Origin: a virus
Taxonomy: Duplodnaviria; Caudoviricetes
DNA length: 30,796 bases
Virus record (IMG/VR): IMGVR_UViG_3300016476_001223
Span: 1 to 30,796 of that record
Reading direction: 5' to 3' (one strand)
Numbering within the stretch: the stretch's first letter is position 1; every line of letters begins with the position of its first letter. Below are positions 2,956 through 29,715 of the stretch, piece after piece. A program made the position numbers and the translations under genes. The notes under the pieces are model-generated. The model worked only from the letters and a program-made list of their open reading frames with translations, was not told where the DNA came from and did not search any database.

Positions 2956-3285
2956 ATGGGAATTAACTTACACGAAAAATTGTTAGAGATAAAACAAGAC
3001 TATAAAAATCTAACAAATAAGAATTCTGAACAGATTAACATCATATCAAACAAAATATTAGATGTTTTTGAATATGAGTATGCCACTTTATTAAAATCCG
3101 AAAATCCAAATTATTCAGAACTAAAAGAATTTATTATGTGTTTTATACATGGTAGATTTAAAAAACAATTAAAGTTTAATTTATGGACTGCAATGGCTTT
3201 TTATACTCAAACAGAGTTAACTAATCATGTTAAAAATGTAATGAGGTATAAATATCCAACTAAAACTAAAAAACATGAAAGATAA
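2956..3285 (+). CDS. hypothetical protein
   Basis: 109-aa ORF in operon-like packing. Confidence 0.65.
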   Translation: MGINLHEKLLEIKQDYKNLTNKNSEQINIISNKILDVFEYEYATLLKSENPNYSELKEFIMCFIHGRFKKQLKFNLWTAMAFYTQTELTNHVKNVMRYKYPTKTKKHER

Positions 3286-3772
3286 ATTACGCAAATATAA
3301 TAATGGAATTTATGTGTTATATGATTGTGATGGTGACATCATAGCATCAAGCGACCTTAAAACATCAACAAGTAAAAAGCTTTCTGTAAAAAACTGCCAA
3401 GCAATTGAGAATGGTTATGATTTGGAAGATTTAGCTTATGATTTTTCTTGGAATTATCAATCTGATCCAAATTATGGTGATACAACTAATATATTCAAAG
3501 CAGGCTTCCAAAAAGCACTTGAAATTATTGGTGATAAGAAGTTTAGTATAAATGAAGTTGTAGAACTATGTAAAATACTAATAAGTAATCCTTTTGAAAG
3601 AAGTGGAAAAACTTATCAAGAGTTAACAGATTCTTATGTCCAATCACTACAACAAACTGAATGGGATGTTGAATTAGTGATGGTCCCAGCATTGTCAAAT
3701 AATGGTAATGTGTATTATGGTGATATACCAAAACTTGATGCAGATGGATGTTTAATACTTAAAAGAATATAG
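3275..3772 (+). CDS. modular paralog family, copy 2
   Basis: Same conserved blocks; ends PKLDADGCLILKRI. Confidence 0.85.
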   Translation: MKDKLRKYNNGIYVLYDCDGDIIASSDLKTSTSKKLSVKNCQAIENGYDLEDLAYDFSWNYQSDPNYGDTTNIFKAGFQKALEIIGDKKFSINEVVELCKILISNPFERSGKTYQELTDSYVQSLQQTEWDVELVMVPALSNNGNVYYGDIPKLDADGCLILKRI

Positions 3773-3929: not shown

Positions 3930-4373
3930 ATGAACAGAAACATTCCAAACAAAAATAATAATTTAGTTTCTTTTTTTTTAAAAGAAAAACTAGATAACTT
4001 CCAAGAAGAATATGAAAACCTAATGATTAATACAGAAAAATCATTAGAAAAAAAGTTAATAGATGTTTTTAATAAGTTGGGAATTCACGCCTCAACAAAA
4101 ACAGATAGGTATTCTCTTCCCTACAACAATCAAGTAAAAATAACTCAATATGGAGAATCTTATGTTAACGCAGCTTATAATTCAGAAAAATTATTTAGAG
4201 AAGCTGTAAAAAAAATTTTAGATCAAAATGTTTATAAATTTAGATTTTATATTTTTATAGAAGTTATTGATTTAGAGCCTATGAAAATAGTTGACCCAAT
4301 AGATTCAAAAAAATTTTTTAATATAAACAGAGAAGCAGTTAATCTTTACTTTAATTATCATATTCAAAAATAA
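3930..4373 (+). CDS. hypothetical protein
   Basis: 147-aa ORF. Confidence 0.65.
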   Translation: MNRNIPNKNNNLVSFFLKEKLDNFQEEYENLMINTEKSLEKKLIDVFNKLGIHASTKTDRYSLPYNNQVKITQYGESYVNAAYNSEKLFREAVKKILDQNVYKFRFYIFIEVIDLEPMKIVDPIDSKKFFNINREAVNLYFNYHIQK

Positions 4374-4389
4374 ATATTAGTATCTTATT

Positions 4390-4415
4390 TGAAACTTTTT
4401 TACCTTATAGTCGTA
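4390..4415 (+). promoter_or_regulatory. ECF-type promoter
   Basis: TGAAAC-N16-CGTA upstream of ORF 4439. Confidence 0.7.
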
Positions 4416-5301: not shown

Positions 5302-5373
5302 AGTCAGGTGGTCGATAATGGCAATGGCGATTACGGAAGTAATAGAATATAGGTTCGAATCCTATCCTGGCTA
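5302..5373 (+). ncRNA. tRNA-like RNA with a GNRA tetraloop instead of an anticodon loop
   Basis: Acceptor AGTCAGG/CCTGGCT-A; D-stem GTCG/TGGC; ATTAC-GGAA-GTAAT; T-arm ATAGG-TTCGAAT-CCTAT; 72 nt. Confidence 0.7.
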
Positions 5374-5400
5374 CAAACAAAAATAAATAAATTAAATATT

Positions 5401-10511: not shown

Positions 10512-11015
10512 ATGAAAGCAAAATTAATTAAAGTAAATGACATTTATCGTTTAATTAACGATAATAATTCAATAATTGGTACAACTGATTTAGAATATCA
10601 AAAAGCTTTTTCTGATGTTTGTTTTTTATTATCTACCAAAAATTGTGAAGCAATTGAAAATGGTTATGATTTGGATGAGTTGGTAGACGAAATGCTAGAA
10701 AAAGCACAAACACCCCATAAACTTATTAGTCCAAGTACATTTAGAAGTGGTATAATCAAAGGTTTCCAAAAAGCACTTGAAATTCTTGGTGATAAGAAGT
10801 TTAGTGAGGAAGACATGGTTAAAATGTTTTTTAATGGCAGAGAATCTTTAGATAAAGCATTAGTTACTGTACAAGAAGCAAAAAGTGTTATCCAATCACT
10901 ACAACAAACTGAATGGGGTGTTGAGATTGAGATGGATATTTGTGGTGATAAAGTATATGCTGTACCAGAACCAGTTTTAGATGAAAATGGTTGTTTAATT
11001 TTAAAAAGGAAATAA
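10512..11015 (+). CDS. modular paralog family, copy 3
   Basis: Same conserved blocks; 47 nt (10761-10807) identical to 12061-12107. Confidence 0.85.
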   Translation: MKAKLIKVNDIYRLINDNNSIIGTTDLEYQKAFSDVCFLLSTKNCEAIENGYDLDELVDEMLEKAQTPHKLISPSTFRSGIIKGFQKALEILGDKKFSEEDMVKMFFNGRESLDKALVTVQEAKSVIQSLQQTEWGVEIEMDICGDKVYAVPEPVLDENGCLILKRK

Positions 11016-11817: not shown

Positions 11818-12309
11818 ATGAAATATAAATTAATTAAAACAACAAAAGGATATTCTTTGTTAGATAGTGCAGAAGATGTAATTGCAACAACCCAAGATAA
11901 ACCTAATGAAGTTATAAAATACCAGCTATCATTGAAAAATTGTGAAGCAATTGAGAATGGTTATGATTTAGATCAGTTGGGAATGGATTATGCTTCAACT
12001 ATATATGACGGCAGAACCGAATCAATACGCTTTAATGGTGCTCACATTGATTTTATGAAAGGTTTCCAAAAAGCACTTGAAATTCTTGGTGATAAGAAGT
12101 TTAGTGAAGGTGATATGCTTGAATGTTGGAATACTGCTGCACAAACAATTTCTATTTCTTGGGTTAATTTTATGGAATCAATAGAACCAAATGAATGGGA
12201 TGTCGAAATAGTCACCAGACCTTATACTGAAGTAGGTGAAGGTTTTGTTCTTAAAGAAAAAAGAGAGCCAAAATTAGATGATAATGGTTGCTTAATTTTA
12301 AAAAGATGA
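11818..12309 (+). CDS. modular paralog family, copy 4
   Basis: Same conserved blocks; ends PKLDDNGCLILKR. Confidence 0.85.
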   Translation: MKYKLIKTTKGYSLLDSAEDVIATTQDKPNEVIKYQLSLKNCEAIENGYDLDQLGMDYASTIYDGRTESIRFNGAHIDFMKGFQKALEILGDKKFSEGDMLECWNTAAQTISISWVNFMESIEPNEWDVEIVTRPYTEVGEGFVLKEKREPKLDDNGCLILKR

Positions 12310-12520: not shown

Positions 12521-13840
12521 ATGAGCCAAAATACTTTAACAACAAGAAAGATTGAAATCTACGTTTCAGAATCAGATAAGGATTTAAGAAAAGAATATTA
12601 TAAGACTCTTAGAAATTGGTCATACATTTCCAGGAACTACGCCAATGATACAATTAATGCCCTTCAATCTTCTTTCTTCTTAGATAATATAACTAAGGAT
12701 TCAAATGAAGAGAATAAAAAAGCTCTAACAGAATATCTAGGAATTAAAAAAATGGGTATGGGATATAAAATCCTTGCAAATAAATATAAGGAACATTTAC
12801 CATCATACTTTAGGTCTGCAATAAACTCATTTGTATATAAGAACTTCTCAGAATCTATTAGAGATGTGCTTAGAGGAGATTCATCTGTTACTTCATTCAA
12901 GAAAGACTTCCCATTGCTATTCGATAGTCGTTCAATTAGAAATCTTTCAATAGATGATAAAGGAGGTTCATTTGAATTCTCCGCAATTCCATTTAGATTT
13001 GTTTTCGGTAGAGATAAATCTAATAATAAATCTATAGTCGAAAAAATAACAACAGGAGAATATAAGATGTCAAACTCATCTTTCAAGTTTATAGATAATA
13101 AACTATTCTTCTTTCTTACTGTATCAATTCCAAAAGAAAAGTTTGAACTAGATGAGAATAAAACCCTAGGAGTTGATTTAGGTATTGCAAACCCAGCTTA
13201 TGTATCTATCAATAATGATAAACACTTTAAACAAGCAATAGGAAGTACAGACGCTTTCTTACATACAAGACTCGCAATTCAAAAAAGTAGAAAGTCCCTC
13301 CAAAAAAATCTTACACATACCAAAGGAGGTAGAGGAAGAAATCATAAATTGGATAAACTAAATGATATAGGATCCAAAGAAAGAAACTTCGCCAAGACAA
13401 TGAATCATTCTTGGTCAAAACAAATTATTGAAGCTGCAGTAAAAAATAAATGTGGGACAATAAACATAGAAGATCTTAAGGGTATAGGAAGAGATGAAAA
13501 GAATTCATTCGTTCTTAGAAACTGGTCTTACTTTGAATTGCAAACAATGATTCAGTATAAGGCTGATAGAGCTGGAATAAAAGTTAATATGGTTAATCCT
13601 AAGTATAGCTCTCAAAGATGCTCAAGCTGTGGATTTATTCACGAGGATAATAGAATATCTCAGTCAAAGTTTATATGCCTAGAATGTAAGACGGAAATGA
13701 ATGCTGACTATAATGCTTCTAAGAATATATCTATAGCTCACACCAAAGAGTATGTAAAGGAAATTGAAAATCATTCTAAGGCTATAGAGAAATTGAAAAA
13801 ATTAAATAAGGAAGAAAAAAATGTAGAAGAAATGTTGTAG
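12521..13840 (+). CDS. cas12f: Cas12f-like (type V-F / TnpB-family) RNA-guided nuclease
   Basis: 439 aa; RuvC-I GVDLG, RuvC-II IEDL, NWSYFELQTMIQYKA helix, Zn-finger CSSC...CLEC, RuvC-III NADYNASKNI; CRISPR array 210 nt downstream. Confidence 0.85.
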   Translation: MSQNTLTTRKIEIYVSESDKDLRKEYYKTLRNWSYISRNYANDTINALQSSFFLDNITKDSNEENKKALTEYLGIKKMGMGYKILANKYKEHLPSYFRSAINSFVYKNFSESIRDVLRGDSSVTSFKKDFPLLFDSRSIRNLSIDDKGGSFEFSAIPFRFVFGRDKSNNKSIVEKITTGEYKMSNSSFKFIDNKLFFFLTVSIPKEKFELDENKTLGVDLGIANPAYVSINNDKHFKQAIGSTDAFLHTRLAIQKSRKSLQKNLTHTKGGRGRNHKLDKLNDIGSKERNFAKTMNHSWSKQIIEAAVKNKCGTINIEDLKGIGRDEKNSFVLRNWSYFELQTMIQYKADRAGIKVNMVNPKYSSQRCSSCGFIHEDNRISQSKFICLECKTEMNADYNASKNISIAHTKEYVKEIENHSKAIEKLKKLNKEEKNVEEML

Positions 13841-13857
13841 GTCTAATTATTTATTCC

Positions 13858-13900
13858 TACATTTGTATACATAAGATTGAAACAAGAAAACGTTCTTTGA
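13858..13900 (+). promoter_or_regulatory. host-type promoter plus boxA-like element for tracrRNA/array
   Basis: TACATTTG (13858-13865, TAnnTTTG) followed by CGTTCTTTGA (13891-13900); the same arrangement precedes the tRNA cluster. Confidence 0.65.
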
Positions 13901-13913
13901 TATTTTGACTTTA

Positions 13914-14034
13914 ATGTCGGGCTGGTTGGACAGCCTTAAGCTGAGGTGAATCTCAAAAAAAATACAATGTAAGATAATTGATTGTATTGTTATTCGCACT
14001 CGGTAAATACCTTTTTATTTTTATTGCCTGACAT
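13914..14034 (+). ncRNA. putative tracrRNA / scaffold RNA
   Basis: GGCTG-[GTTGGA]-CAGCC hairpin whose loop complements the repeat end TCCAAC/T; stem 13941-13951/13992-14003; inner stem 13961-13968/13981-13988; ATACCTTT (14007-14014) complements repeat AAAGGTAT; ends approximate. Confidence 0.7.
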
Positions 14035-14050
14035 ATGATTTTTAATTTAT

Positions 14051-14282
14051 GTTGGTATTTATCTTAATTTGAAAGGTATATCCAACCGTAATAGCTTCTG
14101 TTCCTATATTTTATTGTTGGGAGTTATCCTAATTTGAAAGGTATATCCAATGGTTATTCTGATGTTCGTTCAGTTGAGAAGTTGGGAGTTATACTAATTT
14201 GAAAGGTATATCCAATTCCTTAATCCTATTTCTCTCCATTTGAGCAATTGAGAGTTATCCTAATTTGAAAGGTATATCCAAT
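14051..14282 (+). CRISPR. mini CRISPR array, 4 repeats (36 nt) and 3 spacers (29, 29, 30 nt)
   Basis: Repeats at 14051, 14116, 14181 and 14247; consensus GTTGGGAGTTATCCTAATTTGAAAGGTATATCCAAT; the 21-nt core TAATTTGAAAGGTATATCCAA is invariant; spacers are unique. Confidence 0.95.
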
Positions 14283-14465
14283 ATTTAGATACCCTAACAT
14301 ATGGGGGGAGAGTTTAATATTCACCCCTAAATAATATGTTAGATTAAACCCCTTAGTTTTGGGGGGAGAGTTTACTTTTTAATGAATAAATTCTTATAAT
14401 AATTCTGTATAGTTTTTTTAATTAATTACCCTATTTAACAAACCCCTTTGGGGAGAGTTTAATTA

Positions 14466-14863
14466 GTGGTAATTTGTGGGTGAAAATGTAGGTAAAAATA
14501 TAGTCAAAATTATGTGCTATTTTTATACAAAATTTTATCAAATAATTGTTGATAAAATTGATGTGTAAATTTGTGGTAATTTGTGGGAGGTTTTAGAGCT
14601 GTTTTTGAGCTTTTTTAATGCCATTTTGATAGAGTTATCCACACTTGTTGATAACTATTAATTAGTTAATTGGTTGATTATCAGAAAGAAACGCAGATTT
14701 TAGTCGCTTTTTGTATATAAAAAATTTCAACCCTGTTCTGTAGACATTTTCCCCCACAAACTCCCACCAAAATTTTGACCAACGATATTTTTAATCAATT
14801 GTTGGTTGAGCCCTCAAAAGCAATAATTTGCCCTCACGGATCACATTCATAATCAGTAAGTTG
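14466..14863. other. candidate replication-origin-like region
   Basis: TTATCCACA 14635-14643; TGTTGATAA 14547-14555 and 14646-14654; TTATACAAA 14523-14531; GTGGTAATTTGTGGG at 14466 and 14573; IHF-like matches at 14667-14679 (minus) and 14851-14863. Confidence 0.45.
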
Positions 14864-14932
14864 CAAAAAAGTTTTATAAAATTTGGAAAATAGAAAAGTA
14901 TATAAGATAATTTTTGTGGGGGTTTAATTTGA

Positions 14933-14948
14933 TGTTTCAAGTGGAACA
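14933..14948. other. parS-like site
   Basis: TGTTTCAAGTGGAACA, one mismatch from the parS sequence TGTTTCACGTGGAACA. Confidence 0.45.
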
Positions 14949-15121
14949 AATCATTGGGGGTTTTTGGCATAGTAAACCAGGGTCAGAATTGACTAGCAAT
15001 TTGACAAGATAAAAAACAAGAAAAAAGAGTCCCTCACACGTTACCTTTTGGTTGTGTCAAGATAGCATAAAAATCATGCTTTGAGGGTTTATATTTGGGG
15101 GTTTATTTTTTTATTTTTTTT

Positions 15122-15446
15122 TTAAGTTTTCTTTATTTGTTTTTCTATAACAATGTGGGGGGATCTAAATAGATTCTACCTCCTTATATATATAATACGA
15201 CTATGCCCCCCAAATGTTACAGGGGCTATAAAAATATAATTGCAAAACTTAAAAAAAAAGATAATTATTTTTTTTATTTTTTAAAAAAATATTTTTAAGT
15301 TCTACCAGAAAAACTTTCTATAAGTTGGCTTTTGGGGGGGCGTGAAATAAATTTTGGGGGTTGAGCCAACCTATAGAAAAAAATACCCCCAAAACTTAAA
15401 TTAATTTTTTTTTAAGTTCTTGCTAGAAAAATTTCTATAGGTTGGC
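15122..15446. promoter_or_regulatory. cluster of TTAAGT-N16-TCTATA motifs plus one ECF-type promoter
   Basis: Motif at 15122(+), 15295(+), 15372(-) and 15412(+); ECF-type promoter at 15196-15221(-). Confidence 0.65.
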
Positions 15447-15493
15447 GTTTGGGGATTTATATTTTATCAACATTAAGTTGATAACTATAATAT

Positions 15494-15766
15494 TTATGAT
15501 CTCAACAAAGAAATGCTTTCTCCTTCTTGTAGGTCGTTTTTTACTGAGTGTATATTAATTATTCTATATGTATATATTCCTACTTGTTCCCAGGTTTCTT
15601 TTCTGAGTTGTTGTTTTCGATTATTATCTAGATATATGATTGTTTGTTCTGAATAATCATTTTCTCTGTTGTATTTTTCTTTTAATACAAATCTGTCTAG
15701 TTTGTCTTTTAGGTTTGTTATTTGTTTGTTTTCTGTGAGTCCTATATAAATTTGTTTATTATTCAT
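15494..15766 (-). CDS. hypothetical protein
   Basis: 90-aa ORF; shares C-terminal LQEGE with its neighbour. Confidence 0.55.
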   Translation of the reverse strand: MNNKQIYIGLTENKQITNLKDKLDRFVLKEKYNRENDYSEQTIIYLDNNRKQQLRKETWEQVGIYTYRIINIHSVKNDLQEGESISLLRS

Positions 15767-17257: not shown

Positions 17258-17821
17258 TTAATTGAACTTATATGCTCTATCTTTAATGAAGTATATTCCT
17301 TTCTGAATTATATATTCTTCATCTGTAAAATATCCTTTGCTAATATTTAATTGGTTTTCATTTTTAATTCCCAAAACAATTGAGTTATCCAGGTTAACAG
17401 TTTCTTTTGTTTTGATATAGTATATAATGGATGAACCTCTTTCTGCCAGGAGTGAGCTGGTTGATATTATTATATTTTCGTTTGTAATAAAAACTATTTT
17501 ATTTATTTGATCATCTGAAAGGTCTATGTATATACCGTTTTGTGAGGGGACAACTTTTTTGTTTGTTGTGTTAATGGGGAGAGTTTTAATATCTAGTTTA
17601 AATGGTTCGCTTATTGGCGTTTTAAAGTTTTCATCTTTGAGGGATGAGGTATTTATTACTTCTTGTGGAATTTTTATGTTTAAATTCTTTTGAATCCAAT
17701 CAGCTGTATTTAAATAGGAATTGTTTATATGTTTTTTTTCCTGGTTCTGTTTTTTGTTTAGGGATGAAGCTATTATTATAATAGACAGGGAGAGTAATAA
17801 ATAAAGATGTATATTTTTCAT
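17258..17821 (-). CDS. membrane-anchored or secreted hypothetical protein
   Basis: Hydrophobic N-terminal helix; ECF-type promoter at 17831-17856. Confidence 0.65.
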   Translation of the reverse strand: MKNIHLYLLLSLSIIIIASSLNKKQNQEKKHINNSYLNTADWIQKNLNIKIPQEVINTSSLKDENFKTPISEPFKLDIKTLPINTTNKKVVPSQNGIYIDLSDDQINKIVFITNENIIISTSSLLAERGSSIIYYIKTKETVNLDNSIVLGIKNENQLNISKGYFTDEEYIIQKGIYFIKDRAYKFN

Positions 17822-19592: not shown

Positions 19593-19765
19593 ATCATATT
19601 ATTTTATAAAAATAAATATATATGAATTTAAGTTTTTGATGTTTTTTTTTCTATAGGTTGGCTTTTGGGGATGAGGTTTGGGGGAAATAAAAAAAAGTGA
19701 CCAGGTTATCTGATCACTCTTTTACTTTAACGAAAGAAAGGAGGAGTTATTTCGTCAAGTCTGTG

Positions 19766-19847
19766 TACTTTGGGAGGGACTCGAACCCTCACACCTTGCG
19801 GCACTGCGCCCTTAACGCAGCATGTCTACCAATTCCATCACCAAAGC
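19766..19847 (-). tRNA. tRNA-Leu(AAG)
   Basis: Acceptor GCTTTGG/CCAAAGT-A; anticodon arm CTGCG-TTAAGGG-CGCAG; long variable arm with GCAA loop; T-loop TTCGAGT. Confidence 0.9.
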
Positions 19848-19853
19848 GTAATG

Positions 19854-19927
19854 TGGTCCAGGAGGGACTCGAACCCCCGACCTCAAAATTATGAGTTTTT
19901 TGCTCTAACCAGCTGAGCTACAAGACC
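19854..19927 (-). tRNA. tRNA with CAT anticodon, probably Ile2 (lysidine-type)
   Basis: GGTCTTGTAGCTCAGCTGGTTAGAGC...CTCATAA...GGTTCGAGTCC; discriminator A; a few stem mismatches. Confidence 0.85.
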
Positions 19928-20610: not shown

Positions 20611-20671
20611 AATATTTTATTATAAATAGTATGAGTTTTTTTAAACGAACCAAAAACAACAAAGAAAAAAG

Positions 20672-20744
20672 TAGTCCTATCAGGGTTCGAACCTGAACGA
20701 TTTCTTTAGAAGAGAAATATGCTATCCAATTACATCATAGAACC
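20672..20744 (-). tRNA. tRNA-Arg(TCT)
   Basis: Acceptor GGTTCTA/TAGGACT-A; anticodon arm TTTCT-CTTCTAA-AGAAA; T-arm TCAGG-TTCGAAC-CCTGA. Confidence 0.85.
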
Positions 20745-23560: not shown

Positions 23561-24196
23561 CTAAAATCCTCCTTTAGTTAAAATATCTTTCAAGTGTTTT
23601 TTTGCTCTGTGTAAAAAAGCTTTTACATCACTTTGAGGAATACCCATTTCGCTTGAAATTTCAGAATAACTTTTGTCGCCAAAATAATAAAGAACAAGAG
23701 CTTGTCTTTGTTTTTCATTTTTTATTTTTTCAACAGCTAAGAATAACAATTTATATTCTTCTGCTTTAATCATTGAATTCATAGAGTTGTTTAGCAAGTT
23801 TTTGTCTTCTACTTGAAACTCAATAAATTCATCTCCATTATTTGTTGTAAAACCTAAACTATCTAAACTCACTTCTGAATTACTTTTTTTCTTTCTGAAA
23901 TCCAAAAGAGTATTGTTTGCAATTTTGTAAATCCAACTTGAAATTGTTCCCTCATCTGACGAGTAAGAATCGAATTTTAAATGAACTTTTGTAAATACGT
24001 CCATTAATAAATCTTTCGCCACTTCTTCGTTGTAATTAAGCTTTTTATTTAAAAAGTTAAAAACTTTACTTTTATATTCTTTGAACAACAATGAGAAACC
24101 CTCATCTTTTTTTATTTGTGAATTGCAGTTAATCAACTCTAAAACTCTACTCTCTACATTCATCTCCTTCGCCGCTTTCATTTGTGTCTGTCTCAT
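23561..24196 (-). CDS. ECF-family sigma-70 factor
   Basis: Region 2 AKDLLMDVFTKV...SWIYKIANNTLLDF; region 4 QRQALVLYY..KSYSEISSEMGIPQSDVKAFLHRAK; own ECF-type promoter at 24218-24243. Confidence 0.92.
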   Translation of the reverse strand: MRQTQMKAAKEMNVESRVLELINCNSQIKKDEGFSLLFKEYKSKVFNFLNKKLNYNEEVAKDLLMDVFTKVHLKFDSYSSDEGTISSWIYKIANNTLLDFRKKKSNSEVSLDSLGFTTNNGDEFIEFQVEDKNLLNNSMNSMIKAEEYKLLFLAVEKIKNEKQRQALVLYYFGDKSYSEISSEMGIPQSDVKAFLHRAKKHLKDILTKGGF

Positions 24197-29531: not shown

Positions 29532-29642
29532 GGTTTTTTTTATTATATAGAAAACGTAACCATTAAAACTTAAAAAAGGGAGAATTTAATTTTCCCCCTT
29601 TTTAAAAAAGACAATTATGAATGAAACTTGAACTAGGTTTCG

Positions 29643-29715
29643 TGGTGGAGGCAGGAGTTGAACGCTGCGACACACGGGGTTTCAAGCCGTTGCTCTACCA
29701 CTGAGCTACTCCACC
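29643..29715 (-). tRNA. atypical tRNA-Phe(GAA)
   Basis: Acceptor GGTGGAG/CTCCACC-A; canonical D-arm; loop TTGAAAC; C-C mismatch at the anticodon-stem base and a bulged T-stem; TATATTTG promoter at 29728-29735(-). Confidence 0.7.

Follow-up and report, generated by a model that had tools for sequence, protein, structure and literature searches.

Does the region between a 439-aa open reading frame and four 36-nt repeats in a phage genome encode a separate tracrRNA, or a scaffold that continues into the first repeat and spacer as a natural single guide? The window (i.e., the whole 30,796-nt stretch that we analyzed) is a linear virus record, IMGVR_UViG_3300016476_001223 (16% complete), whose gene content includes an endolysin, HNH nucleases, a sigma factor, and tRNAs. 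A first-pass annotation of this DNA had proposed a candidate tracrRNA whose anti-repeat is split and whose hairpin loop forms a pseudoknot with the repeat, had suggested that scaffold, repeat 1, and spacer 1 could form a natural single guide, and had added that such a locus would be a TnpB-to-Cas12 intermediate. We consider the identity of the region as a Cas12f1 tracrRNA virtually certain; that it is the tracrRNA gene of a phage type V-F CRISPR-Cas12f1 module, likely cotranscribed with its array and with repeat 1 and spacer 1 acting as an in-cis guide, is on balance probable.

Table 1. Features of the cas12f1 locus (window coordinates)
Feature	Position	Strand	Evidence or remark
cas12f1 gene, 439 aa	12521..13840	+	RuvC D219, E317, D396 and zinc-finger cysteines; PDB matches; fold Z; PF07282
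Predicted Bacteroidota sigma-A type promoter (TTG at 13835, TAnnTTTG box at 13858-13865)	13835..13865	+	start predicted near 13870
tracrRNA region	between 12521-13840 (ORF) and 14051-14282 (four 36-nt repeats)	+	
boxA-like element GTTCTTTGA, predicted Nus antitermination signal	13892..13900	+	boxA-like pattern enrichment
Stem 1 hairpin, 6 bp	13919..13936	+	pairing probability 0.95; 3/6 stem pairs change on both sides
Stem-1 loop GTTGGA, short anti-repeat of the pseudoknot	13925-13930	+	2/6 pseudoknot pairs change on both sides
Stem 2, long hairpin with conserved CTGAG/CTCGG closing core	13940..14004	+	probability 1.0; C-G to T-A in 4/8
Proximal anti-repeat (ATACC) ATACCTTT(T)	14007..14015	+	pairs with repeat 14071-14079; probability 0.96
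Distal anti-repeat segment, predicted	14025..14035	+	pairs with 5′ end of repeat 1; holds TGACAT
Repeat 1, full length	14051..14086	+	5′ half diverged (17/20 versus later copies); 3′ 19 nt intact
Spacer 1, 29 nt, predicted in-cis guide	14087..14115	+	array detection
Repeats 2-4, 36 nt (starts 14116, 14181, 14247), with spacers 2 (29 nt) and 3 (30 nt)	14116..14282	+	

The upstream protein and its genomic setting

In Cas12f1 systems, a protein dimer (an asymmetric homodimer) binds one guide RNA, the pseudoknot places the guide directly after the last base of the repeat, and the complex cleaves dsDNA beside a 5′ PAM. On sequence and modeled fold, the upstream protein is Cas12f1, a predicted nuclease with intact RuvC motifs: D219, E317, D396, and four zinc-finger cysteines are invariant across 52 aligned homologs, and 865 homologs were found at an E value of 1e-20 or better. 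Among solved relatives, Cas12f chains all came first by sequence (E values from 6e-68 for Al3Cas12f, 9NZO, to 5e-26), with much weaker matches to TnpB (3e-12) and LaTranC (1.6e-5). Likewise, the predicted monomer model (pLDDT 86.9) gave Z scores of 27.9 (AsCas12f), 25.8 (dCas12f), and 25.2 (Al3Cas12f) versus 19.6 for TnpB and 12.4 for LaTranC, the rmsd of these fold matches being near 7 Å (7.0 over 395 residues for AsCas12f, the best). In NCBIfam, the protein is named guided_TnpB only (170.7 bits, cut-off 100); it falls below the Cas12f2 cut-off and does not reach those of IS200 and IS607 TnpB (68.4 of 425 and 51.6 of 350 bits, respectively). Like type V-F1 effectors, it is a RuvC protein of 400 to 550 aa that is closest to Cas12f1 and keeps its D-E-D residues and zinc finger intact, and the array downstream of the gene, with the tracrRNA between them, is the type V-F1 layout (PMC8548392 and PMC10691335, cited, like the other papers here, for the excerpts consulted).

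A scan for Cas1, Cas2, Cas4, and transposase families found none among 45 of the 51 window ORFs (six overlapping shadow ORFs were omitted), in a record that holds only 16% of the genome. Beyond the array lies a stretch of ~1.2 kb without ORFs (14300-15500), which lies at the switch between plus- and minus-strand gene blocks and is possibly an origin or regulatory region; it holds copies of GGGGAGAGTTT at 14305, 14363, and 14450, with another copy at 17576. An unexplained dispersed intergenic repeat, TTCTATARGTTGGC, occurs on both strands (15316, 15433, 19056, 19649, 30728, and, on the minus strand, 15365). Four paralogous genes of 160 to 190 aa (1840-2403, 3275-3772, 10512-11015, and 11818-12309) have no Pfam match and share long near-identical DNA blocks. 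There are five tRNA genes (5302-5374, 19765-19927, 20671-20744, and 29642-29715), one of them for Leu with an AAG anticodon, which is unusual in bacteria. The phage-encoded sigma factor gene (Sigma70 r2 and r4; 23561-24196, minus strand) lies 9 kb from cas12f on the opposite strand.

Pairing between scaffold and repeats

Repeat 1 is the only array copy ending in AAC, with which the GTTGGA loop forms six Watson-Crick pairs, as compared with five plus one G-U pair for repeats 2 to 4 (AAT). The proximal anti-repeat ATACCTTT(T) is the complement of (G)AAAGGTAT in the repeat, and the duplex of 14006-14035 with repeats 1 to 3 is predicted at -15 to -17 kcal/mol (~-16 for repeats 2 and 3). In 3,000 dinucleotide shuffles of the 210-nt gap, an anti-repeat of at least 8 nt arose in 14.7%, GTTGGA in 6.1%, and both in 1.1%; the folding z-score of the region is -1.23, and an Rfam search returned two chance-level matches and no family. 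Without other loci, the window's complements exceed chance by only a modest margin, and we therefore examined covariation across loci. The fold probabilities in Table 1 were computed on the scaffold-repeat 1 transcript with the pseudoknot strands blocked.

Locus searches yielded at least 240 loci, of which 60 were selected (a score of 120 bits or more with an array no farther than 400 nt away, and L086 and L007 added by hand); 55 of them carry a stem-1 hairpin, found independently of the repeat, and 48 of these are unique. The loop pairs over at least 5 bp with the last 8 nt of the repeat in 22 of the 48 unique array loci, relative to a mean of 6.4 and a maximum of 14 in 10,000 permutations that ignore relatedness between loci, in a set that includes at least one false array (L197) and some loci with imprecise automatic repeat ends. 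Among close relatives, the loop/repeat-end pairs are GTTGGA/TCCAAC, GTTGTA/TACAAC, GTTATA/TATAAC, and GTTCAG/CTGAAC. In an alignment of eight scaffolds, with the structure drawn from the window and L007 and L089 left out, 98.9% of cells pair, versus 27 to 44% when the partners are slid. Of the 25 pairs, 7 have changes in both partners (0 of 500 shuffles, which likewise ignore relatedness), two of them in the pseudoknot and one in the anti-repeat helix. Because of this covariation, we regard the pseudoknot helix and the proximal anti-repeat helix as certain to be real, as far as sequence can tell; stem 1, stem 2, the 6-bp pseudoknot, and the proximal anti-repeat helix are shown at the level of sequence and covariation. 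Separately, L013 (4115-4390) and L169 combine Cas12f-like genes with arrays of 61-nt period whose 28- to 29-nt repeats still pair with the stem-1 loop; these repeats, in our estimation, resemble type I-E repeats.

Covariation in homologous loci was among the checks that the first-pass annotation had named, and both pairings came through it: the loop at 13925-13930 with the repeat's last 6 nt, and the anti-repeat at 14007-14015, each lying where it had been placed and each pairing with the 3′ part of the repeat. The end of the fold had also been put correctly, 16 nt from repeat 1 (14034, with repeat 1 starting at 14051 on the same strand). A further helix, in which ATGTCG (13914-13919) and TGACAT (14029-14034) would close a multibranch fold, fared differently, with a probability of 0.00 in the presence of repeat 1 and 0.04 without it. 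It is a sequence complement only, and we rejected it; a partner with GACA can be seen in four of the eight scaffolds, with no compensatory change. For SpCas12f1, a head-to-toe stem has been proposed (excerpt of PMC12255294). Since 14025-14035 and 14006-14035 pair with the repeats, the anti-repeat is the bulged long anti-repeat of Cas12f1 type, of which TGACAT is part, the distal portion being predicted.

The guide match with Al3Cas12f (Cas12f-MG119, type V-F1; PDB 9NZO, 9NZR), the best PDB sequence match, and with MG119-3 settles the identity as a Cas12f1 tracrRNA and upholds the proposed pseudoknot and split anti-repeat. In the portion of PMC13186708 consulted, both of these validated guides share with the window the GUUGGA loop, the GAGG and CACUC core, an anti-repeat of ~10 bp, and the AUCCAAC end; the Al3Cas12f guide also has the same 6-bp stem, short anti-repeat, and one unpaired A, and that of MG119-2 has a short ACCAU anti-repeat right after the core. 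The window protein differs in being phage-encoded and 439 rather than 488 aa long (~35% identity), and the published Al3Cas12f single guide is an engineered GAAA fusion, whereas in the window, repeat 1 follows the scaffold contiguously on the genome. Cas12f1 duplexes are described as combining a long stem, often bulged, with a pseudoknot whose short stem has 5 to 7 bp (PMC11246509, in part), which is the form of the window guide; stem 1, pseudoknot, and stem 2 are conserved across Cas12f1 and TnpB (PMC12255294, in part). The loop-repeat pseudoknot is therefore the known core of the Cas12f1 family, and the RNA architecture is known; the locus itself looks functional. Compared with AsCas12f1 (the best fold match), SpCas12f1, and OsCas12f1 (excerpts of PMC8548392, PMC12255294, and PMC11246509), the window lacks stems 3 and 4 between stem 2 and the anti-repeat and has a 36-nt AT-rich repeat and a boxA-like leader.

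Transcription and the first guide

Ahead of the scaffold lies the predicted promoter, of which we take the TTG to be the upstream element. In Flavobacterium, the TAnnTTTG box sits at -12 to -5 (PMC9723704, in part), which would place the start near 13870 and, by analogy, makes a Bacteroidota host likely. Five of 12 scaffolds have the box in the corresponding position; because the motif occurs 43 times in the window, it says little by itself, and a sigma-70 promoter scan gave 14 matches versus 14.7 expected. GTTCTTTGA occurs twice in the whole window, a loose boxA-like pattern is found in 8 of 12 scaffolds, and in 10 of the 48 array loci the pattern stands ahead of stem 1, versus 7 of 2,680 background bins. 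BoxA precedes CRISPR arrays and affects read-through (PMC7862264 and PMC13753749, both in part, and Stringer et al. 2020 as cited there); our limited literature search found no description of a boxA before a Cas12f tracrRNA. No G+C-rich terminator was found between scaffold and array (0.7 expected in shuffles, hence weak evidence). Arguing the other way, a T-run at 14012-14025 could terminate the transcript, and a host RNase might cleave the long bulged stem. Taken together, the Bacteroidota-type promoter motif and the boxA-like element suggest that scaffold and array quite probably share one transcript.

Searches of viral sequences with 17-mers of spacers 1 and 2 gave 7 and 42 stretches, respectively, none matching beyond 19 of the first 20 nt; the best match was 23/29, and a shared 5′ motif was not found. 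The same kind of search with spacer 3 gave no matches, BLAST of the spacers against phages gave E values of 0.6 or worse, and no spacer matched the window itself beyond 16/20; neither a protospacer nor a PAM emerged. The repeat pattern had no matches in viral contigs, scaffold pattern searches recovered only L005 and L006 (both already known loci), and a single-sequence locus search gave no match.

Part of the proposed natural single guide stands: an in-cis guide of repeat 1 and spacer 1 is plausible, given an in-cis anti-repeat/repeat 1 helix of probability 0.96 in the predicted fold, the boxA-like element, and the cut first repeats of relatives. The in-line spacing offered with it is, by comparison, unexceptional. 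From the core to the end of the first repeat, we counted 37 (L007), 48 (L005), 58 (L086), 60 (L085), 61 (L087), 88 (window), and 109 nt (L006), and the median in 24 non-clade loci is 109 nt, with 6 of 24 at 95 nt or less (32 of the 48 loci were scored and 16 skipped; a short value for L088 is probably a chance match, a separate reading of that locus giving 112 nt). The first repeat is reduced to its 3′ part in L005, in both scaffolds of L086, and in L007 (three copies of 75 to 80 nt), so that truncated or fused first repeats occur in three of seven close relatives, all beside RuvC-intact proteins; the 5′ half is missing in 1 of the 24 scored non-clade loci. Because the first repeat of the window is still full length, the chances for and against an intact fused first guide at this locus are evenly balanced. 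Searching the literature by title or abstract start, we found no description of a phage Cas12f with a fused first repeat.

Two of these relatives have further features. In L007, the three fully fused guide genes are dispersed (2828-2907, 4320-4394, and 5314-5393) around a RuvC-intact 435-aa Cas12f, two of them lead into 18-nt mini-repeats (spacers of 12 to 17 nt), and the stem-1 loop matches that of AsCas12f1. In L086 (1914-3040), two tandem scaffold-plus-array units stand behind one cas12f gene, each with a promoter box, a boxA-like element, and a truncated first repeat.

Under the in-cis reading, transcription would start near 13870 from a host (likely Bacteroidota) promoter, and boxA would recruit Nus factors and bring the polymerase past the U-rich tract and on into the array. 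As repeat 1 and spacer 1 fold back in cis, the first guide would form cotranscriptionally, later crRNAs being freed by host RNases and pairing in trans with the scaffolds of other transcripts. New spacers might come from host adaptation machinery or recombination, and the targets would likely be competing phages or mobile DNA. In evolutionary terms, a dual-RNA system would be shrinking back towards a fused guide.

Rival readings and evolutionary placement

A strictly dual-RNA tracrRNA, whose transcription stops at the T-run or which is cleaved within the bulged stem, with repeat 1 serving as an ordinary crRNA, is a serious though doubtful alternative. SpCas12f1 and AsCas12f1, with the same gene order, give a tracrRNA between gene and array, sequenced as an RNA separate from the crRNA (PMC8548392, in part); the full-length repeat 1, an anti-repeat that pairs equally well with repeats 2 and 3, and a core-to-repeat spacing near the family norm fit this picture as well. 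It sits less easily with the boxA-like element ahead of the scaffold and with the two loci closest to the window in the tree, L005 and L086, whose first repeat keeps only its 3′ part and is attached to the scaffold. That tree, a maximum-likelihood tree of 27 hand-chosen rows with a midpoint root on distant no-array homologs and no named TnpB included, unites the eight clade loci (100/99) with array-bearing Cas12f and dCas12f in one major group (100/99), well away from the no-array group; a second set of array-bearing loci branches off outside this major group. FastTree runs with 104 and 219 rows gave the same nesting (crude-regex noRuvCIII labels in the larger were not used). A sister relation of the clade to dCas12f had support of 89 with 104 rows, disappeared with the denser 219-row sampling, and was not resolved in the maximum-likelihood tree. 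Given this nested position of the clade, amid array-bearing Cas12f and in the same group as dCas12f-sigmaE, fusion of scaffold and first repeat is likely derived rather than primitive.

This nesting goes against the TnpB-to-Cas12 intermediate of the first-pass annotation, a TranC-like state in which an ancestral omega-RNA was kept and an array newly gained; the idea is largely refuted and, in our view, very improbable. The guided_TnpB label with the missed Cas12f2 cut-off, together with a Cas12f core that aligns with that of the TnpB reRNA (PMC12255294, in part), speak for it; the sequence and fold comparisons, which both rank Cas12f well above TnpB and LaTranC, and the scanned ORFs, among which no Y1 or serine transposase family was found, speak against it. 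Systems with TranC or TnpB omega-RNA likewise combine a small RuvC nuclease, a downstream scaffold, and a 3′ guide (excerpts of PMC13565253 and 10.64898/2026.03.27.714800), but the window protein matches them more weakly, is nested inside Cas12f and outside the TnpB clade, scores below the TnpB cut-offs, and comes with a four-repeat array. Nor is it closer to TnpB than to Cas12, as TranC is by secondary description, being TnpB-like and recently joined to an array. Hardly more credible, and if anything less so, is an RNA-guided DNA-binding regulator like dCas12f-sigmaE (Sigma-TnpB) of Bacteroidota, steering transcription for the phage. Its guide is fused and its protein falls in the same major tree group (PMC13472631 and PMC10691335, in part; PDB 9N9C); fused dCas12f guides are also reported in the excerpt of 10.1101/2025.06.10.658880, the same RNA core, with its pseudoknot pairing to TACAAC, is present in 23 of 34 dCas12f-like loci, and the window does contain a sigma factor gene. 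In contrast, dCas12f-sigmaE proteins are inactivated, C-terminally truncated in RuvC, adjacent to rpoE, and mostly without an array, whereas the window protein keeps its array and all three RuvC motifs and zinc finger, its sigma gene is distant and on the other strand, and no spacer has a convincing match within the window.

Returning to the in-cis guide, its wider setting can be read, tentatively, as a large-phage clade with active Cas12f1 whose guides stand at successive stages of re-fusion driven by boxA read-through: (i) full tracrRNA and array (L006); (ii) a scaffold running into a full first repeat (window, L085, and L087); (iii) a half repeat joined to the scaffold (L005 and L086); and (iv) stand-alone guides of 75 to 80 nt (L007). 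Fusion of a Cas12f tracrRNA and half repeat back into one guide has been described (PMC10691335 and PMC13472631, in part), and the excerpt of PMC10691335 puts this fusion after inactivation of the nuclease; fused guide forms beside intact RuvC motifs may therefore be new. The clade's motifs were absent from the supplements searched (one file of PMC10691335 and four of PMC13472631), and its protein motif from 12 of 16 PMC13186708 files; the V-U40 to V-U43 lists of PMC10691335 may include the clade, and the phage Cas12 of 10.1101/2025.01.20.633832 is, from its excerpt, a different one. If the series is true, fusion would precede loss of cutting or do without it, opposite to the order proposed for dCas12f-sigmaE, and the RuvC-intact L005, L086, and L007 make this order testable. 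It would also be a source of natural minimal guides for active nucleases: this new phage clade has compact Cas12f1 proteins (~430 to 440 aa) with naturally short scaffolds, otherwise engineered by deletion, and offers a test set for the re-fusion of two-piece CRISPR guides.
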